64,000 nucleotides of DNA from Candidatus Versatilivoraceae bacterium (GCA_965197895.1 OZ240232.1:228211-292210), one strand, 5' to 3'; shown: positions 13,780 through 48,300, counted from the first letter of the stretch. The notes: generated by a model from the sequence alone, not told the origin. Translations and numbers: made by a program.

Positions 13780-13787
13780 GGGATCGA

Positions 13788-15364: not shown

Positions 15365-16327
15365 ATGGCTTGCAGAACAACCAGTGTGTTCGAGAAGGAG
15401 ATGCGGTCTCTGGGATGGTGGTATCAACATTTCGAATTTCCCAATGGAGTCAAGACCGGAACCGGAGCCCCTCCAGGATACGACGCCCGAAGCCGATGGT
15501 CATTTATTGAGGCATTTGTTCCAGACGACCTGACGGGGAAGACCGTCCTGGATCTAGGGGGCAATGCTGGTTTCTTTTCAATTCAGATGAAGCTCAGGGG
15601 GGCTCAAAGATGCGTGCTGGTGGATCCGTTTGAGATCGCAATCAAACAGGCTGGGTTTGCGGCCAGGCAATTCGGCGTCAGCCTGGAACTGGTCATGGAG
15701 GACGCACATACCTTTTGTCTGACGACAGAAGAGCGATTCGATTTCGTGCTCTTTCTGGGCTTGTTTTACCACCTCAAATATCCGGGCATCGTGCTGGACA
15801 GGCTGGCTGAAATCACGCGAGAGCGAATCTACATTCACTCACACGTCATCGGTCACAAGAGAGAACCTTTTATCAGCAAACCGGACTACAAGAGGAAAAG
15901 TGACGACCACTTGCTGGAACACCCCGGTTTCCCAAGGCTGGCGTTTGTGGAAGCGCAATACAACGAAGATTCTACGAACTGGTGGATACCCAACCGGACT
16001 GGAATGGAGGCCATGGTAAGAAGCGCGGGCTTGCGCATCATTGACCGGCCTCACCGCCAAATAATCGTCGCAGTTCCCGAAATTTATTTCGGGAAGCAGA
16101 TATTTTCGAAGCTGGTGTTCCCGAGGTATGGCAAGAAAGGAGGTGCGGTCCTTCCTGGCTCACAGCGGTATGACCCTGAAGCGTGGATAGAAATATCCGA
16201 GGCCATTGCCGAAAGGCCGGTGGAGAAAACGAACTTTATCGTACGGACGGGGTGGAAATGGATTAACCGATTGCGGTCCCTGTACCTGAAGATTCGCAGT
16301 CGTCTGGTGAGCAAGCTGAGGCAATAA
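15365..16327 (+). CDS. class I SAM-dependent methyltransferase (DUF1698/CmoB-like)
   Basis: Motif I VLDLGGNAGFFSI, then acidic LVDP and DFVLFLGLFYHL. ATG at 15365 has an AAAGGA SD; the track start at 15323 is TTG. Confidence 0.8.
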   Translation: MACRTTSVFEKEMRSLGWWYQHFEFPNGVKTGTGAPPGYDARSRWSFIEAFVPDDLTGKTVLDLGGNAGFFSIQMKLRGAQRCVLVDPFEIAIKQAGFAARQFGVSLELVMEDAHTFCLTTEERFDFVLFLGLFYHLKYPGIVLDRLAEITRERIYIHSHVIGHKREPFISKPDYKRKSDDHLLEHPGFPRLAFVEAQYNEDSTNWWIPNRTGMEAMVRSAGLRIIDRPHRQIIVAVPEIYFGKQIFSKLVFPRYGKKGGAVLPGSQRYDPEAWIEISEAIAERPVEKTNFIVRTGWKWINRLRSLYLKIRSRLVSKLRQ

Positions 16328-16505
16328 TGTTCAAGAACCGCACTGATCCATCCTCCTACTTCCTTTACGTCAAATCCTGACCTGCTACCCTAGGACGTGC
16401 GGCTCGAGGCCGTGTAGTACCTGGTCGGCCACGCCAACCCCATTTCCACCCAGATCTATCACCGGCCCACGATTTGCTCGACGGACTTGGACTCCCGGAC
16501 TCACG

Positions 16506-16804
16506 ATTGATATTCGGCTGACCTGTCCCTCAGTAACTGTTCGGTCAAGCCGTGATGGCTTGGACCCGGACGAGGTTGGAGGTGCCTGCAATCACAGGCG
16601 ATCCGTCGGTTCTGCTCGCTGCGCCTCCCCGGGACGGCGGATGGTCTCCACGGCTTGGCCGAACGGTTACGTCCGCCAACGTCCTGGAGGGTCCAATGGA
16701 TTCCTTTTCGAAAAGAGGGATATAATGAGGGAACTTCAGTCGGATAAACCATATTAAGTCTATTATAATTAGAGGTTTACAAACTATAGGTTGCAGGCTG
16801 TGCA
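16506..16804 (+). repeat. P1 repeat copy carrying a ~130-bp internal insertion
   Basis: Shares both ends with the other P1 copies; the extra segment lies at 16520-16690. Confidence 0.6.
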
Positions 16805-17885
16805 GCAGCTTCTCGTCCTGTTTATCCTGTCTATCCTGTCTATCGATGTTCCCTAATGCAACAAACCGGTTTAACGGGACATGTCCCTACTCCGGAAAGG
16901 TCATGAAGGTCCGTTGTTTCACTCTCGAATGATCCGCCCCGTCGTGGGGGCGGGGGCCGGCTTGCCTGAAACAACATCTGGGTTCGGCTGAAGGAAAACC
17001 GGTTGAGGGGTTATCCAGGAAGGACACGAAGTTACACCCTACAATTCCCGGCGTTTGGTATCGGCCTCGAGCATGAAAAGACTAATTGACATCGATGGAC
17101 AGGATAAACAGGATTATTTGGCGAGAGGTTTCAGCCTCTTGAGTTCGACCATCGCCTTTTCTTCAACAAGGATTCCAAAAACCCGCTCCCAAGCTCATGG
17201 ACCCCTTCAAACGTGCACCCGATTATCGAACCAGTCAGCTTCCCGTGCAGCAGCTTCTCGTCCTGTCTATCCTGTCTATCCTGTCTATCGATGTTCCCTA
17301 ATGCAACAAACCGGTTTAACGGGACATGTCCCTACTCCGGAAAGGTCATGAAGGCCGGTTGTTTCACTCTCGAATGATCCGCCCCGTCCTGGGGGGCGGG
17401 GGCTATACTTGCCTGAAACAAACCTGGGTTCGGGTGAAGGAAAACCGGTTCAACAGATTGAAAGAAAGGGGGTTGGAGAGGAATTGACAACTTCTGGGAG
17501 TTATCCAGGAAGGACACGAAGTTACACCCTACAATTTCCGGCGTTTGGTATCGGCGTCGAGCATGAAAAGACTAATTGACATCGATGGACAGGATAAACA
17601 GGATTATTTGGCGAGAGGTTTCAGCCTCTTGAGTTCGACCATCGCCTTTTCTTCAACAAGGATTCCAAAAACCCGCTCCCAAGCTCATGGACCCCTTCAA
17701 ACGTGCACCCGATTATCGAGCCAGTCAGCTTCCTGTGCAGCAGCTTCTCGTCCTGTCTATCCTGTCTATCGATGTTCCCTAATGCAGCAAACCGGTTTAA
17801 CGGGACATGGTCCCTGCTCCCGAAAGGCCATAAGGGTCCGTTGTTTCACCCTCGAATGATCCACCCCGTCGTGGGGGCGGGGGCC
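16805..17885 (+). repeat. tandem array (~2.3 units) of the ~490-bp repeat
   Basis: The units beginning at about 16805 and 17230 are >90% identical, and a third partial unit begins at about 17725 and ends at 17885. Each unit holds a ~340-bp segment bounded by 23-bp inverted repeats ATCCTGTCTATCCTGTCTATCGAT / ATCGATGGACAGGATAAACAGGAT. Confidence 0.8.
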
Positions 17886-25914: not shown

Positions 25915-26440
25915 GGGCCCCCGCCCCCCAGGACGGGGCGGATCATTCGAGGGTGAAACAACGGATCCTTATGGCCTGTCGCGAGTAGGGACCATGTCCC
26001 GTTAATCGGGTTTGCTGCATTAGGGAACATCGATAGACAGGATAGACAGGATAAACAGGACGAGAAGCTGTTGCACAGGAAGCCGACTCGCTCGATGATC
26101 GGGTGCGCGTTTGAAGTGATCCAGTAGCTTGAGAGCGGGTTTTCGGAATCCTTGTTGAAGAAAAGGTGATGGTCGAACTCAAGGGGGTGAAAACTCTCGT
26201 CCCGGAGCATGCAGCCCAGACCATCAACAAACCATCCTGTTTATCCTGTCCATCGATGTTAATCAGGGATCGACTCATGCTCGACGCCGAGACCCAACGC
26301 CGGGAATTGTAGGGTGTGGCTCCGTGTCCTTCCCGGATAACCCCCACAAGTTGTCAATTCCTCTCCAACCCCCTTTCTTTCAATCTGTTGAACCGGTTTT
26401 CCGTCACCCGAACCCAGGTTTGTTTCAGATAAGTATAGCC
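25915..26440 (-). repeat. inverted copy of the ~490-bp repeat unit
   Basis: Reverse complement of the 16805-17885 array consensus. Confidence 0.75.
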
Positions 26441-31768: not shown

Positions 31769-34700
31769 CTAGAGTTCCAACGCCGGCAATCCTGCGTCGC
31801 GGACCAGTTGGTTGAAGGATGCCGCCTCGCCCTGGCACAACTCCCGGAGTCGGGAGAGCTGAACGTCGATCTGGGCGCAGAGGTGGTCGAAAACGTCGTA
31901 GGCCTGTTTGGGCGGGGCGGCATCGGCAATGCCGACCACACTCACCAGTCCGCCCAGTTTGGCGTTTAAGCGGACCGGATAGCGCAGGCGGTCGAAGGGG
32001 GTTTTGTCTTTCGTCTGAATCAATGCGTTCTCGATGGATTTCAATTGATCCCGGACATCATTGGCCTTATCGGAGATCTGCCGCGACTTGTCCTGGTCGG
32101 ATTTGTCCAGTTCCTTAGCGCGCCGTGACCACTCGTCCGTTTGCTGCTGCAAGCGCCGTGTGCGGTTGATGGCGCCGTTGGTTTCCGACAGCTTGTCGCG
32201 GATTTTGGTCCACAGTTCGAACTGGGCCTGGAAGTCGGCCGGCGTGGCTGTCACCCGCGGGTCCTTGAGAATATCGAAGGATTCCGTCTGGGTCTGTCCG
32301 CCCAGGGTGAGACGGACTTGATAGGTCCCGGGAGGGGCCAGGGGACCGTTCCCGCTCTTCTCCTGCGAGCCCAGGAGAGTGGGTTCGGCTTTCTTGTGTT
32401 CCTCGACTTTCTCGGCATCGGGGTAGCGCATATCCCAGACGAAGCGGTTCAGGCCGGCCTGGGCGGTGAGGTAGCGGTCCGGCTTGGAGGTGTCTTCCTC
32501 TCGGTCCTCTTCCTCCGACTCTTCCAATTTATTGGCGAAGCTCTTGACTGCATAGCCGGCGGCATCGAGGAAGGTCAGCTCGACGGGCTCGGTGGGCGCC
32601 TGCCCCAGCAGGTAATAGACGATGACGCCTGGGGGAGGGTTTTGGCCGGAGTCGAGGTAGTGGCGGACGATTTCGCCCTCCGGAGTCTCTTCCTGGGTGT
32701 AGCCGGCGTTGGCGCCCAGGCCCAGCATATAGTTCTTACCTTTTCCGGCGAATAGATTCAGGCTCCAGTGCAGCAGGGTACGGTAGGTGGGTCGTGGCGG
32801 GAACAAATGAGTCGCGGCCTGGGCTCCTTCGGGACCCAACCGGCGCAGCGGTGTCAGATCGTCGAGGACCCAGAAGGATCGGCCGTGGGTACCGGCCACC
32901 AGGTCGGAGTCTTTGATTTTGAGGTCGTAGACGGGTACCACCGGGAGGTTGTTTCGCAGCACCTGCCAGTGTTGCCCGTCGTCGAAGGACACGAAGACGC
33001 CCGTCTCGGTGCCCACGAAGAGCAGTCCCGGGCAAATGGGGTCGGCTCTGACCACCCGGGTGATTTGGGCCTGGGGGAAGTCGCCGTTGATGCTCCTCCA
33101 GCTCCGGCCGTAGTCCTCGGTCTTGTAGAGGTAGGGACGGTAGTCGTCCAGCTTGTAGCGGGTGGCGGAGACATAGGCCGAAGCCGGGTCGTGGGGGGAG
33201 ACTTCGACGCAACCCACATAGGCCCAATCCGGCAGTTCGGGGGGAGTCCTGTTGTTCCAATGGTCGCCGCCGTCTCGCGAGAGGTGAACCAGTCCATCGT
33301 CGGTCCCGGCCCAGAACACGCCCTTTTCGTGGGCCGATTCCACAAAGGTAGAGAGGGTGGCGTATTGCTCGGCCCCGCTGACGTCCTTGGTAATGGGGCC
33401 GCCGGAAGCCTCCAGCTTGCTGGGGTCGGCCCGGGACAGGTCCGGACTGATGGCTTGCCAACTGCTGCCCCCGTCGAGACTGCGGAAAAGGATGTTGCCG
33501 CCGGCATAGAGCACGTTGGCGTCGTGCGGTGAAATGGCAATGGGGAAGGTCCAGGCAAAGCGGTATTTGAGGTTCTTGGGCGCCCAGCCCGTCGACTCTT
33601 CGGGCCAGACGTTCACCAGGCGGATCTGCCTGGTTTTGCGATCATAGCGCTGCATCACGCCGTTGCCGCCCGGGGAGCTTCCGACGGCACCCAGGTAGAC
33701 AACGTCAGGATTTTGGGGATGCACCGCGATAAAACCGCTTTCTCCGGTACCAGGCGAAAAGCAGTGGCTCCAGGCGATGGCGCCGTACTCGGTGGCGCTG
33801 GGAACGCAAATACTGGCGTTGTCCTGCTGGGTGGCATAGACGCGGTAGGGGAACTGGTTGTCGATGTCGATGCGATAGAGCTGTGCCGTGAGCTGATTGT
33901 AGATGGTCGACCAACTCTGGCCGCCGTTGAAGGAGACACAGGCACCGCCGTCGTTCCCCTGCACCAGATGCCTGGGATCACGGGGATCGATCCACAAGTC
34001 GTGGTTATCGCCGTGGGGCGTGGTCACCTGGGCAAAGTGACGGCCGCCGTCAGTGGACTTCCACATCTTCAGGTTGGTGACGTAGACGGTGTCAGCCTGC
34101 TGCGGGTCGGCGAAGACGTGGCAGTAGTACCAGGGCCGGTGCATCAGGTCGCGGTTGTCGCTGACCCGCTGCCACTCTTGTCCGCCGTCATCCGACCGGT
34201 AGAGGCCTTCCTGCTCCGCTTCCACAATCGCCCAGACGCGGTCCGCCTGCGCCGGCGAGACGGCGACGCCGATCTTGCCCTTGATGCCCTTGGGTAGACC
34301 TTGGTTGTTGCTGATCTCGGTCCAGGTGTCGCCTCCGTCGGTGGATTTAAAGAGTCCGCTATCGGGCCCGCCGCTGGACAGAGACCAGAAGTTGCGATAG
34401 GCCTCCCAGATGGAGGCGTAGAGCAGGCGCGGGTTGTTGGGGTCCATGGCCAGGTCCACCGCACCGGCTTTGTCGCTGCGGTAGAGCACCTTTTCCCAGG
34501 TCCGGCCGCCGTCATCCGAGCGGTAGACGCCGCGTTCCGGGTTGGGGCCGAAGGCGTGTCCCAGAGCAGCTACGTAGACCAGGTCGGGATTGTGCGGATG
34601 GATGCGAATTTCGCCGATGTGGTGGGTTTCCTCAAGTCCCATGTGAGTCCAGGTTTTGCCTGCGTCGGTGGATTTGTAGAGGCCGTCCCCATAGGACACG

Positions 34701-34990
34701 TCCAGGCGGATGGTCGTTTCACCGGTGCCGGCGTAGATGACGTTGGGGTCGGAAGCGGCCACCGCCAGGGCGCCAATAGAGGCCGTGTTGAAGAAGCCGT
34801 CGGAGACGTTTTCCCAGTAAGTGCCACCGTCGGTGGTCTTCCATACTCCGCCGGCTACGGCGCCGAAGTAGGCGGTCATGGAGTTGACGGGGTCACCGGC
34901 CACGGCCACCACCCGACCGCCGCGCGGCGGGCCGATGCAGCGCCATTTGAGGTCTTGTAGCAGGCTTGGATCGTAGGGGGGGGTGCTCAT
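31769..34990 (-). CDS. BNR/Asp-box repeat protein (VPS10/sortilin- or GH74-like beta-propellers)
   Basis: 1073 aa from ATG 34990 (GGGAG SD). Many S-x-D-x-G-x-T-W Asp-boxes (KTTDGGTYW, STDAGKTW, SDDGGRTW, STDGGDTW, SLDGGSSW...). No obvious signal peptide. Confidence 0.8.
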   Translation of the reverse strand: MSTPPYDPSLLQDLKWRCIGPPRGGRVVAVAGDPVNSMTAYFGAVAGGVWKTTDGGTYWENVSDGFFNTASIGALAVAASDPNVIYAGTGETTIRLDVSYGDGLYKSTDAGKTWTHMGLEETHHIGEIRIHPHNPDLVYVAALGHAFGPNPERGVYRSDDGGRTWEKVLYRSDKAGAVDLAMDPNNPRLLYASIWEAYRNFWSLSSGGPDSGLFKSTDGGDTWTEISNNQGLPKGIKGKIGVAVSPAQADRVWAIVEAEQEGLYRSDDGGQEWQRVSDNRDLMHRPWYYCHVFADPQQADTVYVTNLKMWKSTDGGRHFAQVTTPHGDNHDLWIDPRDPRHLVQGNDGGACVSFNGGQSWSTIYNQLTAQLYRIDIDNQFPYRVYATQQDNASICVPSATEYGAIAWSHCFSPGTGESGFIAVHPQNPDVVYLGAVGSSPGGNGVMQRYDRKTRQIRLVNVWPEESTGWAPKNLKYRFAWTFPIAISPHDANVLYAGGNILFRSLDGGSSWQAISPDLSRADPSKLEASGGPITKDVSGAEQYATLSTFVESAHEKGVFWAGTDDGLVHLSRDGGDHWNNRTPPELPDWAYVGCVEVSPHDPASAYVSATRYKLDDYRPYLYKTEDYGRSWRSINGDFPQAQITRVVRADPICPGLLFVGTETGVFVSFDDGQHWQVLRNNLPVVPVYDLKIKDSDLVAGTHGRSFWVLDDLTPLRRLGPEGAQAATHLFPPRPTYRTLLHWSLNLFAGKGKNYMLGLGANAGYTQEETPEGEIVRHYLDSGQNPPPGVIVYYLLGQAPTEPVELTFLDAAGYAVKSFANKLEESEEEDREEDTSKPDRYLTAQAGLNRFVWDMRYPDAEKVEEHKKAEPTLLGSQEKSGNGPLAPPGTYQVRLTLGGQTQTESFDILKDPRVTATPADFQAQFELWTKIRDKLSETNGAINRTRRLQQQTDEWSRRAKELDKSDQDKSRQISDKANDVRDQLKSIENALIQTKDKTPFDRLRYPVRLNAKLGGLVSVVGIADAAPPKQAYDVFDHLCAQIDVQLSRLRELCQGEAASFNQLVRDAGLPALEL

Positions 34991-35082
34991 GAGCTTGGCT
35001 CCCTTCTGAGGGCGGGCGCCCCGCATGGCCGCGGGGCCGCCGGATAAGTGACGGGGACCATTATATATTTACTGTCGTGCCA

Positions 35083-35325
35083 GCCCGCATTTCTCACCGG
35101 GGGGCGTGATCATGGCGTAGGATTTTCCGCTTCAGCGCGTGCTCGTGACCGAAGAGCGTAGCCGGAACTACGTTCGAGGGAGCACGTGCGCGCTGAAGGG
35201 GAAAAGACAAGCCAGGGTGCGCCCAGCGTCGTGTGTAACTGCAAGCCCTCAATATAAGAGCAATAAGCTGCTGAAGACAACCTGCTTTTCATGACGTGTC
35301 CAGCGACCCGGTGAGAAATGCGGGC
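35083..35325 (+). mobile_element. 243-bp MITE with perfect 18-bp TIRs GCCCGCATTTCTCACCGG and an internal imperfect palindrome
   Basis: TIRs at 35083-35100 and 35308-35325. A second copy at 42055-43164 carries a group II intron. Confidence 0.75.
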
Positions 35326-35330: not shown

Positions 35331-37732
35331 TTACCAGTACCAGCGGACCTTGGCGGACAAGGTGCGGGGCTGCACCACGCGGGTCCCCACAAAGACCGAT
35401 TGGAAGTTGTAGAGCGCCGTCCTGTCGGTCAGGTTGGCCACCTGAAAAACGAGGTCCCAAACACGGCGGTCGCCGCGAATATGCCGGTAGCCGACGGTCG
35501 CGTCCACGATCGTCCTGGCCTTCATCCGAGGGGGCTCCGAGGTCAGGTTCACCAGGGGCAGTTGGTCGAAGTAGTCGGGATCCCGGGCCACCTCGGCCGG
35601 GTCGGAAGGGTTGGGCACCAGGCCGCTGTCGTAGCGAACCTGCCAGCTCGTCCACCAGTTCTTTCGCGGACGGTAGGTCAGCAAACCGCTGACCGCCAGT
35701 TTCTGGTCGTGGTCGATCACAAAAGGCCCCTCACTCAAGAGGCCCAGCGCGGCGCTGCCCAGAAAGAGTCCTCCGGTAAAGGGCGGGGTGACGACCACGT
35801 GATAGTGGGTGGTGCTGACCGACCCGCTGAAACGGCGAATTTCCGGAAGGGTGAGACGGGTTTCGAAGCCGTTGACGTTGGAGCCAGCCAGCGAGGTCGG
35901 GAAGATGATCCCGGTATTGAGGAAATTGTCGTTGTCCTGCAGATCGCGGGAATCCTTGTGGTAGAACACCGCGTTCAGGCTGGCCCGGTCGGCCAGTTTC
36001 TGCTGCAGCCCCACCTCGTAGACGTTCTGGCGCTGTGGGCCGATCGGGATGACGCCGCCGTTCAGGTCGCGCCTCACATTCGGCGGGGCCAGGCGCCCGG
36101 CCGCGGCCGAGTTGGACAGCAGCAGATTTTCGTTGGGCGGGGTCTGATAGTTCCGATTGTAGGAAGCCCTCAGAACGGTCCCGGTCTCTCTGAGGTGAAA
36201 GGCCAGACCGAGCCGCGGCTGGAGTTGAGCTCCCACCGTCACAAAGCGGTAGCGGTCATAGCGCCCGCCAGGTTGAGCTGGAACCGGCCCAGTTTGATAC
36301 GGTCCTGCAGGAAGAGGGTCTGCAGTTGGCCGGCGCCCTTGTCGGAAAACCGGAACCAATGCCCCCCTCGGGTGAGGTCGAAGGAAGCCAGGTTGGGGTT
36401 GAAATCCCGCGACCCGGGATGGTTGAAGCCGGGGTCGGTGATTCCGAAGAAGAAATTCTCGCTGACCGGAAAATACTGGTAGTCGAATCCGATTCTCCAT
36501 TGATGGCGGCCGCGCAGGATGTTGAAGCGGTTGAAGGTGGAGAAGGTCGAAAGATGCCGGGCCAGTGAGGCCGTCACCGGGGTGTCTGCGGCGCTGGGGA
36601 ACAGTTGGGCCACCGTGGTTCGGTAGGAGGTGGTGGAATCGAAGGTAGTCGAGGGGGAGATCAGCCGAACCCACCCCAGTGAAACTGCCGCATCGCGCAG
36701 GTGGCGCCTCTGTTGCTGGCCGTTCCGATGCTGAGACCTCAAGTTGGCCAACTGGAAGGAGGAGCGTCCGGCCAGCAGGCTCAGCCGAAGATTGTCTTTC
36801 GGGGTGGCGTGGGAGTCCAGCCGAAGGAAACCGCGTTCGGCGTTGCCGCCGTTGTGAAGATTATCGAGAGAGGGGCTGTCGAGGAAGCGGTTGCTCTTCA
36901 CCGCGGAGACGGAGGCGAAGTAGCCCAGGTTTTCCCTGGCCCCGCCGAGCTGCAGGATCGCCGAGCCGGTGTCGAACTGTCCCCCACCGAGTTCGAGCAT
37001 CCCGAAGGCATCGCCCCCCCCGTCAAAGCCTGAATGGGTGGTGATGTTGGCCACTCCCGAAATCTTGCTGCCATAGTCTGGAGGAATGTCCCCCGTGTAG
37101 AGCTCAAGGGATTGCACCATCGATGGATCGATCGAGGTGGCGAAAGAACCGGTGAATTGATCGCTGATCGGCATGCCGTCGATCACATAGGTCATCTGAT
37201 TGTGGGCCCCGCGCGGATGAACAGCCCCGTTGGCGTTGGCGGCAAAACCGGGCAAGGTGAGCAGGATCCCTTCCAGCCCGCGGGCTCCGGCCTGGACAGG
37301 CATCTCCTCGATGGCTTTGCGGTTGAGCTCGGTGCGGGTTCCGGTGGCCTCGGTATCGATCAGCGTCATTCGCTCTACCAGAGAGACCTCAATGGCCTCC
37401 TGCTGAGTAGCCAGCGAGAGCCGGATAGGGGTGAGGACGGGAAGGTTGGAGCGAAGATGGACGGCCTCGGTGTGGGTGGCGAAGCCGGAGTGGCTTACTT
37501 GCAGCTCGTAGGTTTGAAATGGAATGTTGAGAACCTGAAAGGAACCATCCGATTCGGTGGCGGTTTGGCGCTCGAATCCGGTCAGGAGGTTGGTCAAGCG
37601 AACGGTGGCTCCGGACACGGAGGCTCCAAGCGGATCGACCACGGTTCCGCCCAGTTGTGCCGTTGCCTGAGCCCCGGCCGGCCAGGGAACGGTCAAAATC
37701 AACAAGATTCCCAAAAGGATCGAATAGACCAT
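35331..37732 (-). pseudogene. TonB-dependent receptor (CarboxypepD_reg + plug + barrel) with a -1 frameshift near 36262
   Basis: N-part 36239..37732 (signal MVYSILLGILLILTVPWPAGAQA, TVVDPLGASVSGATVRLTN...). C-part 35331..~36260 ends in an aromatic C-terminus. The two frames join as ...FQLNLAGA|YDRYRFVTVG. This may be a sequencing error. Confidence 0.75.
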
Positions 37733-38009
37733 TGCTTGGAACTGCCCCGATTCGATCGCGGGCGACAGGGAGCTTCCCTGGCTGGACGGTTGCCGGGGAG
37801 CACCCGGGAAACGCCGCCTCGGGCTGCTCCGCCGCACCCCCCTGCCCTCCTTGAGCCACCGGGCCGAATCCCTTCCCCTGAAGCATGATTGCCCGCCTGT
37901 TGGCGCAAGCTTTTGCAAGCTTAAAATAAAGTTTAGATAAGGCTAAATATCTTGTCAACGCTTTTGTTCACAGGATGGAGGAGGATCTGCACCGATAGAT
38001 CGTCTGTGG

Positions 38010-39635: not shown

Positions 39636-39824
39636 TTGCGAAAATAATGTAGATTTTGGATCGCTTCAAACGCGGATCTGATCATTGAGCTAGTCAGCTT
39701 CCTGTGCAGCAACATTCTTATAGATTCCAATGGCGTTTATCTTCGTCCAGTACAGTCTATTACTGTCTTTATTATCATTGACTTATGTGAGTTCCGTCGT
39801 CGCTTGGCCAGCTTGCATCATCCC

Positions 39825-39859
39825 TTGCAATCCACTGGCATCCCCTATATAATAAGGGG
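39825..39859 (+). promoter_or_regulatory. second copy of the TTGCAA-17-TATAAT integrase promoter inside the CCCC-TATATAATA-AGGGG palindrome
   Basis: Same architecture as 7739-7773; ATG at 39860. Confidence 0.55.
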
Positions 39860-41092
39860 ATGATTGCTGGAACCCATACCGCCTGTCTGCTACCCAGAAC
39901 CAAACCCAAGGGCCGCCATCCCCCAAAGGCCCTCTCGGCTGCATTCCTGCGCTCCGCTCCGCCCGGAAGACACGCCGATGGAAACGGATTGTACCTCTTC
40001 GTCCAGCCCAGCGGAACCCGCAGCTGGATTCAACGCCTCCTGGTCCGCGGCCGCCGCCGTGAGCTCGGACTCGGCAGCGTTGCCCTGGTCCCGCTGGCCG
40101 AGGCCCGGGAGAAGGCGCTCGCCAACCGCAAGCTCGCCCGCCAGGGCGGGGACCCGCTCGCCGAGAAGCGACGTAGCCAGGCCGTCCCCACCTTCGCCGA
40201 AGCCGCCATGCGTGTGCTGGAACAGAAGCGGGACGGATGGCGCAACCCGAGACACCCGCGCGAGTGGATCTCGAGCCTGAGGCGGTTCGCCTTCCCGCGC
40301 ATCGGCAAGGTGCCGGTCTGTGAGGTCACGAGCGCCGATGTCCTTGAGATCCTCACGCCCATCTGGCACCAGCAGGCCCCCACGGCCCGGCGGGTGCGCC
40401 AGCGCCTGCGGGCGGTCCTGGAATGGGCCGTAGCCATGGAGTACAGGATCGACAACCCCTGCGACCGGATCGGCCCGGTCCTGGGTCTCCAACAGGACGT
40501 TATCGAGCACATGCAGGCCTTGCCCCATCGGGAGGTGGCTGCGGTGATCCGGACGGTGCGGGTATCCCCAGCTCTGCCGGCCGCCCGGCTGGCCCTTGAG
40601 TTCCTGGTGCTGACGGCAGCCAGGTGGGGCGAGGTGCGGTGGGCTGAGTGGGAGGAGATCGATCGTAGCGGGAGGGTGTGGACCGTCCCGGCCAAGCGGG
40701 CAAAGACGAACCGCCGGCACCGGGTGCCGCTGTGTGGCCGTGCCCTGGAGATTCTCGAGGCGGCGCAGGCACTGGAGCAGGGAGCCGGTCCGCTGGTGTT
40801 CACCCATGGGGGCGGGAGGCCTCTCCATGACAGCCAGCTGCGCCGCCTGCTGCGCGAGCTTGGGGTTGCGGCGGTGCCACACGGGTTCCGCTCGACCTTC
40901 CGGGACTGGGCGGGTGAGGAAACGGACCATCCCCGGGGGGTGATCGAGGCGGCCCTGGCGCATGTGGTCCGGAACCGGGTCGAGGCAGCCTATGCCCGCT
41001 CGGACCTGTTCGAGCGCCGGCGTATCCTGATGGACGACTGGGCGCGTTACCTGGCCCAAGGGATGGAGGAGGAGTCGGAGCCCTTGGAGTAA
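39860..41092 (+). CDS. int: P4-type tyrosine integrase, copy 2
   Basis: 410 aa, collinear with 7774..9006. Confidence 0.9.
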   Translation: MIAGTHTACLLPRTKPKGRHPPKALSAAFLRSAPPGRHADGNGLYLFVQPSGTRSWIQRLLVRGRRRELGLGSVALVPLAEAREKALANRKLARQGGDPLAEKRRSQAVPTFAEAAMRVLEQKRDGWRNPRHPREWISSLRRFAFPRIGKVPVCEVTSADVLEILTPIWHQQAPTARRVRQRLRAVLEWAVAMEYRIDNPCDRIGPVLGLQQDVIEHMQALPHREVAAVIRTVRVSPALPAARLALEFLVLTAARWGEVRWAEWEEIDRSGRVWTVPAKRAKTNRRHRVPLCGRALEILEAAQALEQGAGPLVFTHGGGRPLHDSQLRRLLRELGVAAVPHGFRSTFRDWAGEETDHPRGVIEAALAHVVRNRVEAAYARSDLFERRRILMDDWARYLAQGMEEESEPLE

Positions 41093-41207
41093 AGAGGCCC
41101 AAGGGATCGGTTGCCCGGGGCAAACCAGGGTGAGAGCCAGGCTCGAAGTCCGGCGGCAGTCAAAGCCAGGTTGAGCAGGACAACCCGGGTCCAGGTCTTC
41201 AGCATTT

Positions 41208-41342
41208 CAGCCTTCCCGCAGGGATCACTGTGGAGGGAGCGACCCCCCTTTAAGGGGAGGGTAAAGGTGTCGTTTTGCGTGTCACCCTTTACCCCTACCC
41301 GGTGCCGCACCAGCGGTCAAAAAGGGGGGGTCGCTCCCTCCA
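41208..41342 (-). repeat. palindromic module copy 2 (inverted relative to integrase; centre identical to copy 1)
   Basis: Reverse complement of 10324-10459. The adjoining 41350-41520 is the inverted 3' flank of the 9163 gene family. Confidence 0.75.
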
Positions 41343-41660
41343 CCAGCACCCCTCTCGTGCGGCGCGCCGCCGCGCCGGTCGGGAGGGGGACACGCGAGGC
41401 GCAGCCTCGCTTCGCTGTTTCGCATTGGACGCGGAAAATGCTTGTCCTTCCGCGTCTGATGCGGCGTTTCGGGAAAACCCTTAACCACAACGGAGAGGCC
41501 TCCGCCCTCTGAGAGAAAAGCGTTGTCGTGCTCAAAAACATGTCACCCCTCGATGTCACCCCCCCCCTTCGGAAAGGGTGACACCCATACGGCGGCATCT
41601 GCTTGACCCCCAGAGGCGGAAATCGTCGACCATTCCGCGGTCATTGGGTGAGCCTGTTTC

Positions 41661-41897
41661 TTGCTCCGATTCATCCCCGCGTCTGTGGGGAACAGGACCG
41701 TGACCAGTATTCCCGAATGGCTGAAGACGGATCATCCCCGGGAGGTGATCGAGGCAGCCCTGGCGCATGTGGTCCGGAACCGGGTCGAGGCAGCCTATGC
41801 CCGCTCGGACCTGTTCGAACACCGGCAGGTCCTGATGGATGACTGGGCGCGTTACCTGGCCCGAGGGACGGGGGAGAATCTGGAGCCCTTCGGGTAA
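41661..41897 (+). pseudogene. integrase C-terminal fragment (third copy, ~65 aa)
   Basis: DHPREVIEAALAHVVRNRVEAAYARSDLFEHRQVLMDDWARYLARG. Homology begins abruptly at 41735. Confidence 0.8.
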
Positions 41898-42054
41898 ACA
41901 GGCCCGTGGACCCTGCCGGAGGTGTGGAAAACCCCGCGGCGCCGGACCGGTACGCTGCAAGCTCACTAGAGAGTTTCCCATACCTCCTTGGACGGGCACT
42001 CCCCGCCCACAGGCTCCACCGTCCCGGCGGCGGTCTTTTTGAATAATCCATTAA

Positions 42055-43164
42055 CCCGCATTTCTTGCCGGGGGGGCGTGAAAATGGCGCAGGAATTTTC
42101 CCCTCAGCGCGTGCTCGTGAGCGAAAAGCGTAGCGGTTTCTACGGTCGAGCGAGCATGTGCGCGCTGAGGGAAAAAGGACGAGCCAGAGTGCGCCCAGCA
42201 CCGTGTGTCATTGGAAACCGTCAAAATAGACCTACAAGCTGTTGAAAACACACCGTCGTTGCACGGTGTATCCAGCGACCCGGGTAGAGTCGAGGACTGG
42301 CGCGTTGACTATAGGGTCCGGTGGCTATTCCGTCGCTTTCGCTTCGGGCCTCAGTCCGGCTCCCTTATCACGTTTCCAGTCCCCGCTCTCCGAACCGGAC
42401 GTGCGGTTTTCCCGCATCTCGGCTCTCCAGTGGGATCATGCCTCTCGCACACAGGTCTCCGCTCGCATCCGTGGACGACTCCTATGGGACTGGCACTCGT
42501 CCCCCACTCCATCCACGTCCGCTCGCGGGTTGCCGCCAGGCCTGTTGACGCCCCGACGACGCCGTCCTCATCAGACGACCCCTTCGCTTTGGCATGTGAT
42601 GCTTCCGGAGTCTCCGGTCCTTTTGCCGGGGTTTCAGGCTTTCGCCACTCCCGGGACCCTTCCCCCTTCGGTCACCGCTCCTCACCTGAGGCCCCTTCCC
42701 TCCACCGGCATTACCCGGCTTCTCCAGTACTACGAGCCTCTCCGCCACCCTGCCGGCCCAGCCTCCCCCTCACGGGGTCCCGGTTCGATGCGTGCCTCAC
42801 CACCCACAGGGCTTCCCATGTTGCCACCTTCTTCCCCTTCCATGCGTGCCAGCGCCACTACCCCGGCGGATCCCGAGGGGTGCCCGCGTCGCTCGCTTCC
42901 CCCTCCGTCTTCGGCCTTCCCCATTTCTCAGGTGGGTCGCCCCCCGCATTGCCCGTTTCGAGGCCTGCTCGACGTTCACTCGCGTTCCGGCCCGCATGTT
43001 CGCTGAACCGCCCAAAGCAGCCCTTTGAACCAGGGTGCTTCAGACCCTATCGTTACCTCCATGATCCGCCCTGGCTGCTACCAACCGGAGCGACAGTTGT
43101 TGGACGGGTTTCGCACCCGTTAGAAGAAGGCGCCTTTCCATGGCGCACTGAGAAATGCGGGTTA
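42055..43164 (-). mobile_element. second copy of the 18-bp-TIR MITE, interrupted by a group II intron
   Basis: Left TIR 42055-42071; right TIR TGAGAAATGCGGGTTA at 43149-43164. Collinear with 35083-35325 except for the insert at 42285-43148. Confidence 0.75.
42285..43148 (-). ncRNA. ORF-less group II intron (864 nt)
   Basis: Minus-strand 5' end GUGCGC, 3' end ...CUCGACUCUAC. Domain V GAGCCGAGAUGCGGGAAAACCGCACGUCCGGUUC at 42392-42427. The insertion is precise relative to the empty MITE copy. No RT ORF. Confidence 0.7.
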
Positions 43165-43363
43165 GGCTGTCTCAGGACCGCGCTCTTCTTCAGCAATGGC
43201 GCGCCGTCCGTCAATGACCAGAGACCGGTTCCCTAATCTCATCAGTCCTTTAGTAAGGTGTGGCTCGAACGTGCTGTGTTTAAAATCACCCAAATACGTT
43301 ATAGTGTGCCTTTCATCATCTAACCCCTTCAGACATTACCCGAGAAACCGGAGAGAACTCGTC

Positions 43364-46300
43364 ATGGGAAACCCCGCTTTGACTGCCGCTTGCCTGCACC
43401 GATTTAGATTTCAAACCGCCCTGGCGTGCCTGCTGGCCTGTGTCTGGACCGTAGCTCTGAGTGTCGAAGGCAGCGCTCAGGACCACGCCGGGGACAAACA
43501 GGCGCTAGTCGCGCTCTACAACGCCACCGACGGCCCCAATTGGGCCAACAACGAAAACTGGTTGAGCGAGGAGCCGCTCGAGAACTGGTACGGCGTCAGC
43601 GTCAGCGATGGACGTGTTACGAGGCTTTTTCTCGCCGGCAACCAACTGACGGGCGCCATTCCTGCCGAGTTGGGCAACCTCTCCAACCTCACGGGGCTGA
43701 TTCTCTCCAGCAACCAACAATACTTGCCTGAAACGAGAACCTTTGAAGGGGGACTGACGGGCGCCATTCCTGCCGAGTTGGGTGACCTCTCCAGCCTGGA
43801 GGTCCTGGATCTCGCCGGCAACCAACTGACGGGGACCATCCCCGCCGAGTTGGGTAACCTCTCCAGCCTCACGGGGCTGTTTCTCCGGAACAACCAACTG
43901 ACCGGGACCATTCCGCCCGAGTTGGGCAACCTCACCAATCTCAGGTGGTTGGATCTTGCAAACAACCAGCAATACTCGCCTGAAACGAGAACCTTTGAAG
44001 GGGGACTGACGGGAGCCATTCCTGCCGAGTTGGGTGACCTCGCCAGCCTGGAGGTCCTGAATCTCGGCGGCAACCAACTGACGGGGACCATTCCGACGGA
44101 ACTCGGTGACCTCGCCAACCTCACGCGTCTGTATCTCGCCGGCAACCAACTGACGGGGACCATCCCCGCCGAGTTGGGTGACCTTTCCAGCCTCGTGGGC
44201 CTGGATCTCTCTGGCAATCAACTGACGGGGACCATTCCGCCGGAGCTGGGTGACCTCTCCAACCTCACGGAGCTGATTCTCTCCATCAACCAACTGACGG
44301 GAGCCATTCCGACGGAACTCGGTGACCTCTCCAGCCTCACGAGGCTGTATCTCCACAACAACCAACTGACGGAACCCATCCCTCCGGAGTTGGGCAACCT
44401 CTCCAACCTCACGGAGCTGATTCTCTCCAGCAACCAACAATACTCGCCGGAAACGGGAACCTTTGAAGGGGGACTGACGGGGTCCATCCCGCCCGAGTTG
44501 GGTGACCTCGCCAACCTCACGCGTCTGTATCTCGCCGGCAACCAACTGACGGGGACCATCCCCGCCGAGTTGGGTAACCTCTCCAACCTCACGGAGCTGA
44601 TTCTCAACAACAACCAACTGACGGGTCCCATCCCGACGGAACTCGGTGACCTCGTCAGCCTCACGAGGCTGTGGCTCTCCACCAACGAACTGACAGGCCC
44701 CATCCCCGCCGAGTTGGGTAACCTCTCCAACCTCACGGAGCTGATTCTCAACATCAACCAACTGACGGGTCCCATCCCGACGGAACTCGGTGACCTCGTC
44801 AGCCTCACGAGGCTGTGGCTCTCCACCAACGAACTGACAGGCCCCATACCCGCCGAGTTGGGTGACCTCTCCAGGCTCTTGGCGTTGTATCTCAACGGCA
44901 ACCAACTGACGGGGTCCATTCCTCCTGAACTCGGGGACCTCGCCAGCCTCACGAGGCTGTATCTCCACAACAACCAACTGACGGAACCCATTCCGCCTGA
45001 GTTGGGCAACCTCGCCAGCCTCAGGTGGCTGGTTCTCTCCGGCAACCAACTGACGGGGTCCATCCCGCCAGAACTCGGTGACCTCTCCAGCCTCGTGGGG
45101 TTGTATCTCAACGGCAACCAACTGACGGGGTCCATCCCTCCTGAACTCGGGGACCTCGCCAGCCTCACGAGGCTGTATCTCCACAACAACAAACTGACGG
45201 AACCCATTCCGCCTGAGTTGGGCAACCTCGCCAGCCTCAGGTGGCTGGATCTCTCCGGAAATCAACTGACAGGGACCATTCCTCCAGAGTTGGGTAACCT
45301 TTCCAGCCTCGTGGCACTGAATCTCGCCGGCAACCAACTGACGGCATCCATCCCTCAGAGTTTCACCAGCCTGATGCTGGAGCATTTCTACTTCCATGGA
45401 AATCCCGGTCTGAGCGTGCCGGATGACGTTGCCCTGCGGGAGTGGCTGGATGGCATCAAGGAACTCCGGGACCAGGATTACTCCCCCGCTACACCCTTTG
45501 TTCCGGTGATCCTGAGCTCCGCCGGGCAAAACAATTCTTTCTTCACCTCGGAGCTGACCCTGACCAATCGAGGAACCGTGGCGGCACCTCTGACCTACAC
45601 CTACACGGCTCATAGGGGAGGGGGAAGCGGCGTTGCCAATGACAGTCTGCGTCCCGGGGAGCAAAGGATCATTTCCAATGCCATCGAGTACCTCAGAACC
45701 CGGCTCATTCCCATCCCCATCCCCGGCACCGGCAATCGGATTGGGACGTTACGGGTAACGCTCGGACAGTTTTCATCGTCCCAGGTGGGGGTCACGGTGC
45801 GGACCACCACCACGGTGCCCGAGGGTCGCGCCGGTCTGGCCTACCCCGGGGTTTCCGCAGAGGCCGGTTTCGATGAAGCCGTGTATTTGTGCGGCCTGCG
45901 CCAGAACCAACAAGATCGCTCCAACGTTGCCTTCCAGAACCTGGGGACAGATGCCGACGGTCCCATTACCTTGAGGACCACGGTGTTTTCGGGAGACCCG
46001 GAGGATAGCCGTCCCCACGTTCTCGAGGATAGAACCCTGCAGCCGGGCGGGTTCTATCAGTATTCGGGGTTGTTGGGGGTGTTGGCCAGTGTGGGCGGCA
46101 ACCGACAGGGCTACGTCAAGGTGGAACGGGTTGAGGGGACGGCTCCGTTCTATGCCTACGGCGTCATCAACGACCAGGCCAACTCAGATGGGTCGTTCGT
46201 CTTTCCGGCCACGGCCAGTTTGCTCGAGGGGACAACGGGACAGACCCTGCCGGTGATTGTCGAGACCGGAGTCTTCACCAGCGAGCTGATGGTGACCAAC

Positions 46301-46966
46301 TTCTCAGACGTTGCCAAGACGGTGACCTTCCGCTTCAGGGCCGATGCGGTCCAGACTCCCGACAAGACGGCCACAGTGGAATGGACCTTCCATCCCGGCC
46401 AGCAAATGATCGTCCCCAACATCGTCGACATGGTGCGCAAGTTGGGAGCAGCAGGGGTCGGGCGGGCCGGACAGACCTTTGCCGGGGCACTGTTCGCCAC
46501 CGTGGCCGAGGGGGACATGAGCGGGATAGCGATCGGAGCCCGCACCAGCTCCTCCGACGGCCGCGGCGGGCAGTACGGGGTTTACTACAACGCGGTGCCC
46601 TACGGGGGGGCGTTCCTGGAAGGCGCCTGGGTGGAGGCTCTCCAGCAGAACGAGGAGAACCGCAGCAACCTGGCGCTGGTCAACACCGGTGAAGTCGATG
46701 ACAGTCCCAGTGTCTTTCAACTCGACATCTACGATGGAGCGACCGGGATGTTGGCCAACACGGTCACCGGCCTGACGGTTCCGGCCGGAGGGTGGCGTCA
46801 GATCAACACCCTCCTGGGGGACTATGCTCCCGGCACCATGCAAGGCTATGTGCGGATCAGCAAGATTTCAGGCAACAATCCCTTCCTGGCTTACGGAATC
46901 ATCAACGACGGCGGGGCGCCGGGACAGCGCAGCGGCGACGGGGCCTACCTGCCGGCTCGGGAGTAG
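43364..46966 (+). CDS. secreted plant-type leucine-rich-repeat protein (~30 x 24-aa LRRs) with duplicated uncharacterised C-terminal domain
   Basis: ATG 43364 with a GGAGAG SD. Signal peptide, then the LRRNT-like cap ALVALYNATDGPNWANNENWLSEEPLENWYGVSV, then repeats LxxLxLxxNQLTGxIPxELGNLSN. The last ~520 aa form two homologous ~250-aa halves. Confidence 0.85.
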   Translation: MGNPALTAACLHRFRFQTALACLLACVWTVALSVEGSAQDHAGDKQALVALYNATDGPNWANNENWLSEEPLENWYGVSVSDGRVTRLFLAGNQLTGAIPAELGNLSNLTGLILSSNQQYLPETRTFEGGLTGAIPAELGDLSSLEVLDLAGNQLTGTIPAELGNLSSLTGLFLRNNQLTGTIPPELGNLTNLRWLDLANNQQYSPETRTFEGGLTGAIPAELGDLASLEVLNLGGNQLTGTIPTELGDLANLTRLYLAGNQLTGTIPAELGDLSSLVGLDLSGNQLTGTIPPELGDLSNLTELILSINQLTGAIPTELGDLSSLTRLYLHNNQLTEPIPPELGNLSNLTELILSSNQQYSPETGTFEGGLTGSIPPELGDLANLTRLYLAGNQLTGTIPAELGNLSNLTELILNNNQLTGPIPTELGDLVSLTRLWLSTNELTGPIPAELGNLSNLTELILNINQLTGPIPTELGDLVSLTRLWLSTNELTGPIPAELGDLSRLLALYLNGNQLTGSIPPELGDLASLTRLYLHNNQLTEPIPPELGNLASLRWLVLSGNQLTGSIPPELGDLSSLVGLYLNGNQLTGSIPPELGDLASLTRLYLHNNKLTEPIPPELGNLASLRWLDLSGNQLTGTIPPELGNLSSLVALNLAGNQLTASIPQSFTSLMLEHFYFHGNPGLSVPDDVALREWLDGIKELRDQDYSPATPFVPVILSSAGQNNSFFTSELTLTNRGTVAAPLTYTYTAHRGGGSGVANDSLRPGEQRIISNAIEYLRTRLIPIPIPGTGNRIGTLRVTLGQFSSSQVGVTVRTTTTVPEGRAGLAYPGVSAEAGFDEAVYLCGLRQNQQDRSNVAFQNLGTDADGPITLRTTVFSGDPEDSRPHVLEDRTLQPGGFYQYSGLLGVLASVGGNRQGYVKVERVEGTAPFYAYGVINDQANSDGSFVFPATASLLEGTTGQTLPVIVETGVFTSELMVTNFSDVAKTVTFRFRADAVQTPDKTATVEWTFHPGQQMIVPNIVDMVRKLGAAGVGRAGQTFAGALFATVAEGDMSGIAIGARTSSSDGRGGQYGVYYNAVPYGGAFLEGAWVEALQQNEENRSNLALVNTGEVDDSPSVFQLDIYDGATGMLANTVTGLTVPAGGWRQINTLLGDYAPGTMQGYVRISKISGNNPFLAYGIINDGGAPGQRSGDGAYLPARE

Positions 46967-46971
46967 ACACC

Positions 46972-47506
46972 GCAGGAGAAAGTTGCCTGCTTCAAGTAGC
47001 TCGGCGTCGACCCCAAGCTACTCCCGAAACGCATCTACGCCGGCCGCGCCAACGGACGCATCCGGTATTTCCACATCAAGATGCCAGTCGCCGTCGACGG
47101 TGACCGGGCCATCTTCGCCTACATGGATCCTGGCATGTCCACCCGAAGCCCGCTCCATTGCTGGGGCCAAGCCCACCGGCAGCTTTGGGACAAGCTCCGG
47201 CAGGCAAGCCGGACTGTCGAAGTATTTGCGGTCGCTTGGTACCAGCACCATCTCAACCGCACCCAGCGGGTTCTCCAGGCCTGGACAACCCGAGACCCGG
47301 CAGCGGCCAAGACAGAAGCGGCGGGGCTGCGGCAAGCCATCGCTGATGCCGATTGGGACACCGTCGAACGCCATGGCGGCCTCGACGCCGTCGTGGATAA
47401 GATCGACCAAGCTGAGGAGGAAACGGCGGCCTGGGCCGGAGCAGGATGGATCGACCATTTCCGCCTCCGGGGATCAAGCTCGTGGCGTCAAATGACCGCA
47501 ATTTGA
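46972..47506 (+). pseudogene. 5'-truncated paralogue of the 9163..10128 integrase-element gene
   Basis: Homology starts 6 bp after the LRR stop and covers the C-terminal ~175 aa (..KVACFQQLG.., YMDPGMSTRS..). It is followed by the same 3' flank and palindromic module. Confidence 0.7.
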
Positions 47507-47710
47507 AAGTCATTGTCAAATTGCGCAGACAAGCCCTGTATTTCCGCCTCTCTCAGAGGGCGGGGCCCTCGCCGTTGTGGTGTGCTCGTTTCAGGAAAAC
47601 CGTTACGGGACGCGGGTTTTCCCGCGTCCTCACCCCCTAAGGGGGCGGGGCTGTGCCCCGCGCGTCCCCCTTCCGGCCAGCGGAGATGGTGGCGCACAAT
47701 AAGGGAGAAA

Positions 47711-47846
47711 GTGGAGGGAGCGACCCCCCTTTTTGCCTTCAAAGTGCGCCACCGAGCAGGGATGACAATTGCGCACCAAATTGCGCACTTTTCCTCCCCT
47801 TTTCGTGGGGGGGCGCTCCCTCCACAGTGATCTCTGCGGGAAGGCT
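47711..47846 (+). repeat. palindromic module copy 3 (same arms, different centre GTGCGCCACCGAGCAGGGATGACAATTGCGCACCAAATTGCGCAC)
   Basis: Arms at 47713-47728 and 47806-47822 (one mismatch). The tail ACAGTGATCTCTGCGGGAAGGCTG is conserved. Confidence 0.75.
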
Positions 47847-48000
47847 GTCGAGTCGGCTAGGAAGCCGACAGCGGAAAAACAGCAGACCATAAATGGCCCT
47901 CAGGCCGAGACGGGTAAGCCTGGGGGATGCACACAACCCAATATCTCCGACCCGCAGCACGGGCAGCTTGCCACTCCACTTGACGGCCTCGGACTCAGGG

Positions 48001-48300
48001 TTGATACTCGGCTAACCTGTCCGCCAACATCCTGGAGCGTCCAGTGGGTTCCTTTTCAAAAAGAGGGATATAATGAGGGAACTGCAGCAGGCTGATTTGT
48101 AGTAAGTTTATTATAATTAATGGTTTATATTTGAGAGATTGCAGGCTGTGCAGCAGCTTCTCGTCCTGTTTATCCTGTCTATCGATGTTCCCTAATACAG
48201 CAAACCGGTTTAACGGGACATGGTCCCTACACCCGAAAGGCCATAAGGGTTCGTTGTTTCACTCTCGTATGATCCGCACGGCGGGGCGGGGGCGGGGGCG
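48001..48300 (+). repeat. P1 repeat plus the first ~140 bp of the 490-bp unit
   Basis: Collinear with 16506-16950 minus the internal insertion. Confidence 0.7.

Follow-up and report, generated by a model that had tools for sequence, protein, structure and literature searches.

The gene and its product

The window analysed in this study is a stretch of 64,000 nucleotides (nt) from the genome of a Candidatus Versatilivoraceae bacterium (GCA_965197895.1 OZ240232.1:228211-292210). At positions 43364-46966 it carries a gene coding for a leucine-rich repeat (LRR) protein of 1200 amino acids (aa), which ends in a module of about 490 aa. This C-terminal module, a representative of a large, strongly conserved and unannotated extracellular family, is the main interest of the locus; the clean integrase island in which the gene lies is of interest as well. 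The host is an acidobacterium (Acidobacteriota) from soil or sediment. Members of this phylum rank among the most abundant bacteria in soil and, to our knowledge, hardly anything has been learned about their cell-surface biology. The gene has the following parts (coordinates are those of the window).

43364-46966 (+): gene for the putatively secreted LRR protein with C-terminal module, 1200 aa, stop codon included
43364-43477 (+): Sec-type signal peptide, aa 1-38, as read from the sequence; the layout is also found in full-length relatives
43493-43609 (+): Trp-rich N-terminal LRR cap, ALVALYNATDGPNWANNENWLSEEPLENWYGVSV..., without cysteines
43610-45421 (+): LRR solenoid, one partial and 23 full 24-aa repeats of the plant-type (PS) class, defined by Pfam, TRF and the list of units
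45497-46963 (+): C-terminal module, about 490 aa (aa 712-1200), four predicted beta-sandwich subdomains in the order A-B-A-B
43505-45664 (-): antisense 'mirror' open reading frame (ORF) of 719 aa opposite the repeat array, judged not to be a gene

The frame of the gene, a single long ORF, spans 43196-46966 (+). The start was placed at the ATG at 43364 because full-length relatives begin at the corresponding Met, which gives a product of 1200 aa. The identical product of 1200 aa is also encoded by another contig, L018, which was assembled independently. The layout of the N-terminus is that of a Sec-type signal peptide: a basic n-region (HRFRF), a hydrophobic core of 17 residues (TALACLLACVWTVALSV) and the small residues GSA preceding QD. 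The protein is thus probably exported via Sec and extracellular, and its description as secreted and adhesin-like in the earlier note, which was made from the sequence alone, is probably right.

The signal peptide is followed by the N-terminal cap, which contains four tryptophans and no cysteine. The cap sequence quoted in the earlier note (ALVALYNATDGPNWANNENWLSEEPLENWYGVSV) is present, but it does not match the plant cap: LRRNT_2 (PF08263) was absent from the Pfam matches of both the whole protein (E ≤ 1) and aa 1-118 (E ≤ 10).

The LRR array

The solenoid was matched in Pfam by LRR_1 (1e-77) and LRR_8 (2e-58). The repeat period found by TRF was 72 nt, which corresponds to the 24 aa given in the earlier note, and the units are spaced by 24 aa except for three insert-bearing ones. 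The consensus of 22 units is IPpELGdLssLtrLyLsgNQLTGp (in the general form IPxELGxLxxLxxLxLxxNQLTGx), with 12 of the 24 positions, among them I, P, E, L, G, L, L, L, L and N, invariant in all 22. The consensus of PS-type repeats is LxxLxLxxNxL(t/s)GxIPxxLGxLxx (PMC2946307), and both the consensus found here and the repeat length, within the 23-25 residues of the class, agree with it, so that the plant-type assignment made previously holds. The variation among the units is concentrated at the x positions of LxxLxLxxN, which form the concave face of the solenoid, usually the ligand-binding side.

The uniformity of the array had been overestimated. Instead of about 30 near-identical repeats, it consists of 23 clear units and a partial one, whose pairwise identity averages 74% at the DNA level (range 54-100%) and 66% at the protein level. 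Recent duplicates are restricted to two blocks of 144 nt (44558/44702 and 44918/45134), and the longest exact DNA repeat, 93 nt, is located at 44611 and 44755.

44558-44845 (+): recent tandem duplication of two LRRs, 144 nt x 2 (44558 vs 44702), 99.3% identical
44918-45277 (+): second, older duplication of two LRRs, 44918-45061 vs 45134-45277, 144 nt, 95.1% identical, with one unit between the copies

The number of repeats does change, as had been suggested in the earlier note. Relatives whose modules are 91-94% identical to that of the present protein contain 8-13 LRRs vs 23 here, counts which have to be read with the reservation that the repeats may be collapsed in some of those assemblies. 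LRR copy number is therefore a property that shifts over short evolutionary distances. For the gene in the window, the occurrence of the same 1200-aa protein on contig L018 speaks against a repeat count distorted by the assembly; an assembly artefact had been named in the earlier note as an explanation that would overturn its view of the repeats.

A 12-aa insert, QQYxPETxTFEGG, occurs in three LRR units (aa 117-130, 201-214 and 357-370). Its sequence in context is NQQY[LS]PET[RG]TFEGGLTG, and the inserts should form loop-outs on the solenoid. The insert is also found in some relatives (e.g. P0012, '...NIRYSLETGTFEGGLTG') and is missing in the full-length relatives with 8-13 LRRs.

The likeness to the PS-LRR proteins of plants (PGIP, Cf-2 and the LRR receptor kinases) comprises the 24-residue pattern LxxLxLxxNxLtGxIPxxLGxLxx and a similar length and layout of the cap. 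In contrast to those proteins, the cap carries Trp residues where they have Cys pairs, and LRRNT_2 does not match it; kinase, transmembrane and effector domains are lacking, and the C-terminal partner of the repeats is an uncharacterised four-sandwich module. Bacterial proteins with repeats of the same class are XopAE, XopAC and XopL of Xanthomonas and the LIC_11051 family of Leptospira.

The repeat class had led to the view that the LRR part came from plants by inter-domain transfer and that the protein, with its unstable, near-identical repeats, could be a host-directed effector. Apart from the PS-type consensus itself, this is favoured by the mobile setting of the gene and by the sub-threshold likeness to XopAE, XopAC and XopL. 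The latter is confined to the LRR units, with scores far below the NCBIfam cut-offs of the families (193 bits vs 600 for XopAE, 161 vs 450 for XopAC and 75 vs 500 for XopL), and the protein carries a Sec signal peptide instead of a type III signal, so that we could not uphold the comparison with type III effectors. Moreover, the cap has neither the plant Cys pairs nor an LRRNT_2 match, and repeats averaging just 74% DNA identity are not what is expected of a near-identical array. The GC content of the gene (0.61) and the GC content at third codon positions (GC3, 0.765) equal those of the neighbouring chromosomal genes, so that the composition gives no sign of a recent foreign or plant origin, and the relatives come from metagenome-assembled genomes (MAGs) of soil or sediment-type and sponge Acidobacteriota, with no plant pathogens among them. 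Recent transfer from plants and an effector function are thus very improbable. As bacterial PS-type arrays go, the LRR part is long but otherwise ordinary.

The 719-aa mirror ORF, which had been taken as a sign of recent expansion of the repeats, does exist, but it cannot serve as such evidence. Other antisense frames over the array are open as well (233 and 335 aa). It has no Pfam match, unlike the sense product, which is backed by strong domain and homologue support, and we have rejected it as a gene. It is regarded here as a by-product of GC-rich periodic sequence and as evidence of nothing.

The C-terminal module and its predicted fold

The C-terminal module consists of two homologous halves (29% identity, E=7e-27), in agreement with the duplication noticed previously. 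Each half is made up of an A-type and a B-type subdomain.

45497-45862 (+): subdomain A1, aa 712-833, strand-2 motif FTSELTLTN
45863-46222 (+): subdomain B1, aa 834-953, motifs DRSNVAFQN and YGVINDxxNSDG
46223-46606 (+): subdomain A2, aa 954-1081, strand-2 motif FTSELMVTN
46607-46963 (+): subdomain B2, aa 1082-1200, invariant strand-1 Trp, motifs NRSNLALVNTGE and YGIINDGG...GDGAYLPARE

Comparisons by hhalign paired the first subdomain with the third (E=2.5e-20) and the second with the fourth (E=1e-32), whereas similarity between the A and B types was not significant with either the 17-sequence or the 116-sequence profiles. The C-terminal region had no match in Pfam (searched with the whole protein, with the four subdomains at E ≤ 10 and with 17 modules) or NCBIfam, and no match among the PDB sequences (phmmer and a 17-sequence profile). 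A match of one subdomain to DUF5719 (E=0.03) was not repeated in other family members and was dismissed as noise.

Structure prediction, which the earlier note had proposed for this region, gave a confident all-beta model. The AlphaFold2 model of aa 700-1200, based on 49 aligned sequences, had a pLDDT of 84.3 and a pTM of 0.85 and contained four runs of eight to nine strands; the mutual arrangement of the four subdomains was predicted to be compact. When the model was compared with the PDB by Foldseek, a probability of 1.00 was reached by 1nc7 (TM1070) only, the rest being multi-sandwich matches with low TM scores. The subdomain fold is accordingly predicted to be an eight-stranded beta-sandwich of the TM1070/ASRT type. 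The C-terminal domain is thus unfamiliar, as stated in the earlier note, insofar as no Pfam, NCBIfam or PDB sequence matches it, but it is by no means peculiar to this gene, and its predicted fold has a relative of known structure.

ASRT (PDB 2II7) and TM1070 (PDB 1NC7), both within PF07100, are the proteins around which the ASRAH superfamily was defined (De Souza, Iyer and Aravind 2009, PMC2739507). ASRAH domains are eight-stranded sandwiches in which strand 1 starts with a Trp and strand 2 ends with an Asn that is almost invariant, and strand 2 lines a cleft predicted to bind sugars. TM1070 is a homotetramer, and secreted ASRAH domains occur as dyads in actinobacterial lipoproteins or, in Chloroflexi, as tetrads to which a peptidoglycan amidase (N-acetylmuramoyl-L-alanine amidase) is fused (PMC2739507).

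Several of these traits recur in the module. Like the amidase tetrads of Chloroflexi, it would combine four domains in one secreted polypeptide. The best-conserved segment of each subdomain is strand 2 (TSELTLTN, RSNVAFQN, TSELMVTN and RSNLALVN), which is closed in all four by an invariant Asn (N28, N152, N272 and N400 of alignment A2); in non-significant hhalign alignments these residues were placed opposite the Asn of IMNTG in TM1070. The strand-1 Trp is invariant in B2 alone (W382 of A2), with F, Y or L at this position in the other three subdomains, and the NTGE turn of B2 resembles NTGD of TM1070. On the other hand, the module shows no significant sequence or profile similarity to ASRAH proteins, it alternates two subdomain types which are not detectably similar to each other, and it has TSELTLTN or RSNLALVN instead of the SHEshChhN signature. 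Its partners (LRR, FN3, cadherin, TIG and proteases) and the taxa in which it is found (Acidobacteriota and Acidimicrobiia) differ as well. The module therefore appears to resemble ASRAH domains in fold, in the number of domains and in two hallmark residues, a likeness which falls short of demonstrating common descent.

Size and distribution of the module family

An exhaustive HMMER scan covering 1.84 billion cluster representatives (50%-identity clusters) detected the module in at least 1,424 clusters when E ≤ 1e-3 was required and in 752 when E ≤ 1e-30 was required; the proteins are 500 to 3,400 aa long. A word-indexed search yielded more than 1,600 relatives, and the best 120 of them share 62-99% identity across the whole module. 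The N-terminal parts of these 120 proteins are wholly different and include LRRs, FN3 with PF16656, cadherin, trypsin, subtilase, CARDB, TIG and Cache domains. Other partners are typical and BspA-type LRRs on either side of the module, Big_9, BNR with TIG, and BACON. All the partner domains are of extracellular type.

The module occurs in Acidobacteriota MAGs, the named ones being Candidatus Versatilivorator, members of the class Terriglobia and sponge-associated bins labelled 'Acidobacteria bacterium'. It was also found in MAGs of Acidimicrobiia, in versions 50-54% identical to those of Acidobacteriota. Within the 64-kb window it is present once only. No source that names proteins of the module family was found, nor any literature on 'Versatilivorator' or on ASRAH beyond the 2009 paper.

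With at least 1,400 clusters and at least 50% identity across two phyla, the module, which is in neither Pfam nor NCBIfam, is well suited to become a new domain family entry and is also a candidate for a common mechanism by which proteins attach to the surface or bind the matrix. Should the assignment to an ASRAH-like fold prove right, the family would form by far the largest extracellular branch of a little-studied, predicted sugar-binding superfamily, and it would be an instance from nature of a homotetramer converted into a single chain with four domains. This changes no paradigm, but domain annotation and the envelope biology of uncultured soil bacteria gain a solid lead from it.

Proposed role of the module

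In our estimate, the chances are about even that the protein is a secreted, surface-displayed LRR binder which is held by a glycan-binding C-terminal module. The protein would be exported by Sec, and the LRR solenoid would bind its ligand, most likely a protein or another macromolecule, via the variable concave face, while the length of the solenoid would drift by unequal recombination between the repeats. The four-sandwich module would bind carbohydrate through its strand-2 faces. Its likeliest ligand may be a glycan of the producer's own envelope or matrix, by which the LRR 'head' would be tethered at the cell surface. In Acidobacteriota and Acidimicrobiia, hundreds of surface proteins that have other heads could share the module as their handle, and the gene would move as cargo of the tyrosine-integrase island of about 8.5 kb described below. 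Such a handle would be similar to the known display handles (SLH, LysM and wall-binding modules of the CBM type, and the C-terminal domain of the type IX secretion system, T9SS) in that one module is combined with many secreted heads and is usually C-terminal. Unlike these, it is much larger (about 490 aa, four domains) and has no sequence relation to them and no linked machinery, and its binding to the envelope is putative.

More broadly, the module may represent a new and widespread surface-display system of Acidobacteriota and Acidimicrobiia, in which an ASRAH-like intramolecular 'pseudo-tetramer' would bind glycans and tether hundreds of different heads (LRR, FN3/cadherin, TIG and proteases) to a lineage-specific envelope polysaccharide, new genes for head and module being spread from genome to genome by small integrase islands with a dispersed repeat as target. 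We put this forward tentatively, as a proposal that is somewhat more likely to fail than to hold.

Several points weigh against glycan-mediated tethering. The structures of the module are predictions, and the fold of the B-type subdomain was not searched separately. PF07100 did not match the four subdomains singly or the 17 modules at E ≤ 10. When the A and B profiles were compared with a 121-sequence ASRT/TM1070 profile (for which 120 PF07100 proteins were collected, the ASRT sequence was checked against PDB 2II7 and that of TM1070 was taken from PDB alignment output), the hhalign probability was 0.5-6%. That ASRAH domains bind sugars has itself been predicted in the literature and not measured, and binding of DNA by ASRT has been reported as well (PMC8660804). 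Glycan-synthesis or export genes were not consistently linked to the paralogues. One relative (L012) consists of a signal peptide and the module and nothing else, which could mean that the module does something in its own right besides anchoring. Finally, the module is N-terminal in 18 of 146 proteins, which is neutral for a binding module and indicates that the position is not essential.

The position of the module was determined in the top 146 representatives. It is located at the extreme C-terminus in 120 of them, behind the signal peptide in the 18 just mentioned and internally in the remaining 8. The predominance of the C-terminal position (about 82%), the strong conservation of the last strand (...RSGDGAYLPARE) and the occurrence of the module in many otherwise unrelated secreted proteins would also be expected of a secretion or sorting domain that is read, as the T9SS C-terminal domain is, by machinery dedicated to export or attachment. 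We give this explanation little credence. A region of about 490 aa is five times as long as the known C-terminal sorting domains, the module is N-terminal or internal in 26 of the 146 representatives, and its conserved tail was modelled as a structural beta-strand; in B2 this strand, GDGAYLPARE, is polar and is not followed by a hydrophobic tail. None of the sorting-signal models (T9SS C-terminal domain, PEP-CTERM, LPXTG and GlyGly-CTERM) was among the Pfam and NCBIfam matches, no terminal transmembrane helix was found, and no conserved machinery was seen in the neighbourhood.

Three to five or more paralogues are found per genome (at least five in one genome), with modules 67-98% identical and the remainder of the proteins differing. 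Similarity of this degree among paralogous modules is what co-assembly would need, and the module might be a self-assembly or oligomerisation scaffold, such as an S-layer-like or matrix lattice, in which different heads co-assemble and no glycan is needed. The four sandwiches would mimic the TM1070 homotetramer and dock onto their own copies. The tetrameric state of TM1070, the occurrence of ASRAH domains as dyads or tetrads, the compact packing of the four predicted subdomains (pTM 0.85) and the existence of a stand-alone module protein are all compatible with it. However, this fold has no lattice-forming precedent, and the best-conserved residues are polar and situated on strand 2 (TSELTLTN, RSNLALVN), which lines the predicted ligand cleft in TM1070; a small ligand fits them better than an interface between proteins. 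A scaffold seems unlikely to us, if the most serious of the alternatives to a glycan-binding handle.

The heads themselves bear on whether the module could be the active part of the protein, i.e. a lectin-like toxin, a pore-former or an unrecognised enzyme merely targeted by the LRRs or other heads. Some of the heads are enzymes (trypsin, subtilase), which fits a handle better than a warhead. The module is an all-beta sandwich without a match to a catalytic family in Pfam, NCBIfam or the PDB, and a small immunity-like gene is not consistently adjacent. In favour of an active role are its position as the most conserved portion of every family member, its many invariant polar residues (E, R, N, D and S) and its ability to stand alone after a signal peptide. 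On balance, we consider an active role of the module improbable and prefer the glycan-binding handle.

The gene neighbourhoods were of no help in deciding between these possibilities: no recurrent gene neighbours were found for the paralogues (L001 and L018-L021), i.e. the neighbourhoods are not conserved. A single case of linkage with surface-polysaccharide synthesis was observed in L019 (ENA ERZ25766727 ctg362284), where a TIG-domain module protein (8001-10664) adjoins dTDP-rhamnose genes (neighbours 11113-14182); the neighbours comprise NTP_transferase, dTDP_sugar_isom, RmlD/epimerase and further TIG proteins.

The integrase island

The LRR gene is cargo of an intact integrase island of about 8.5 kb, inserted at CTGTGCAGCA within a dispersed repeat of about 200 bp. 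Its features are listed below.

39702-48155: integrative island, about 8.45 kb, flanked by 10-bp direct repeats CTGTGCAGCA at 39702-39711 and 48146-48155
39860-41092 (+): tyrosine integrase of the island (Pfam Arm-DNA-bind_3 + Phage_int_M + Phage_integrase)
41661-41897 (+): remnant (3' fragment) of a second integrase gene, the translation of which matches the integrase C-terminus
42284-43122 (-): ORF-less group II intron, about 840 nt, immediately upstream of the LRR gene and antisense to it
Empty att site to be expected for the island: ...AGTCAGCTTCCTGTGCAGCAGCTTCTCG...

The order within the island is integrase, integrase fragment, group II intron, LRR gene and approximately 1.2 kb without recognisable genes. 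The earlier note described the surroundings of the gene as mobile-element debris. Mobile sequences do flank the gene, but what it had seen as debris is more precisely an intact island with direct repeats, for which we also found a second context: the segment 39667-48280 of the window corresponds to 6304-14938 of L018, with 99.3% identity over 8,637 nt and unrelated flanks. The island illustrates the way in which LRR surface proteins that vary in length are moved within and between these genomes.

The integrase remnant is reflected at the DNA level by a repeat, 40922-41100 vs 41727-41905, with 89% identity. The intron was recognised by the Rfam families RF02003 (D1-D4, 42980-43122, 79 bits) and RF00029 (D5-D6, 42284-42427, 41 bits), and its length is insufficient to code for a reverse transcriptase. 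A search of the whole island with Rfam at a relaxed threshold yielded pieces of the group II intron only. A 343-aa ORF on the plus strand across the intron (42205-43236) has no Pfam match and is probably spurious, and the sequence adjacent to the intron 3' end (42055-42283) recurs at 35084-35311 (80%).

The island is similar to P4-type tyrosine-integrase islands (with an Arm-DNA-binding domain) in having the integrase at one end, short direct repeats, varying cargo and a second site. It differs from them in its target, a dispersed repeat of about 200 bp and not a tRNA gene; ARAGORN found no tRNA or tmRNA gene in the window, and the island is not adjacent to one. Uninterrupted copies of the target repeat are located at 17688-17884 (+) and 25917-26123 (-), and there are partial copies at 16671-16957, 17270-17403, 14105-14257 and 7185-7283. 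The presence of several copies in the window implies many insertion sites per genome. The repeat comprises the core CTGTGCAGCA, the hairpin GGGACATGGTCCC and a G-rich tail, and it matched no Rfam family at the gathering threshold. It may be a REP/MITE-like or a regulatory element, or else a small RNA.

In this lineage, genes for LRR surface proteins seem to have become mobile cargo more than once. In another Acidobacteriota genome (L021, ENA ERZ25069191 ctg587110; 8001-10778 and 12302-15331), a protein with the module at the N-terminus and LRRs at the C-terminus is flanked by two tyrosine-integrase genes and transposases, and its gene adjoins one for a 1009-aa protein with LRRs and a reprolysin metalloprotease domain.

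Other mobile sequences and neighbouring genes in the window

A second island of the same type, with different cargo, lies at 7616-16807. At its left end ...CTTCCTGTGCAGCA is followed by ACACCC (7616-7625), and at its right end GCAGG, CTGTGCAGCA and GCTTCTCG stand in succession (16798-16807). Its integrase gene (7774-9006) is a paralogue of 39860-41092 with 87% nt identity (the DNA match extends over 7571-9025). Genes for a trypsin-like peptidase with TPR (11206-13779, -) and for a methyltransferase (15323-16327) make up its cargo, together with several ORFs that have no match in Pfam. The GC content is lower, 0.51-0.54, at 14-17 kb in this island.

An element of about 430 bp is present twice, in inverted orientation, inside the island with the LRR gene (41208-41636, +, vs 47549-47847, -; about 75% identical), with the integrase fragment, the intron and the LRR gene enclosed between the copies. 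The element occurs once in the second island (10042-10464, -; 95% over 164 nt) and matched neither Rfam nor Pfam. It could be similar to miniature inverted-repeat transposable elements or could be the remains of a nested mobile cassette.

Upstream of the island with the LRR gene lie a gene for a sortilin/BNR-repeat protein of 1084 aa (31769-35026, -) and an ORF for a TonB-dependent receptor with CarboxypepD_reg and Plug domains (36239-37918, -), which is apparently truncated or overlapping. The overlap of the ORFs 35331-36674 and 36239-37918 suggests a frameshift or a pseudogene.

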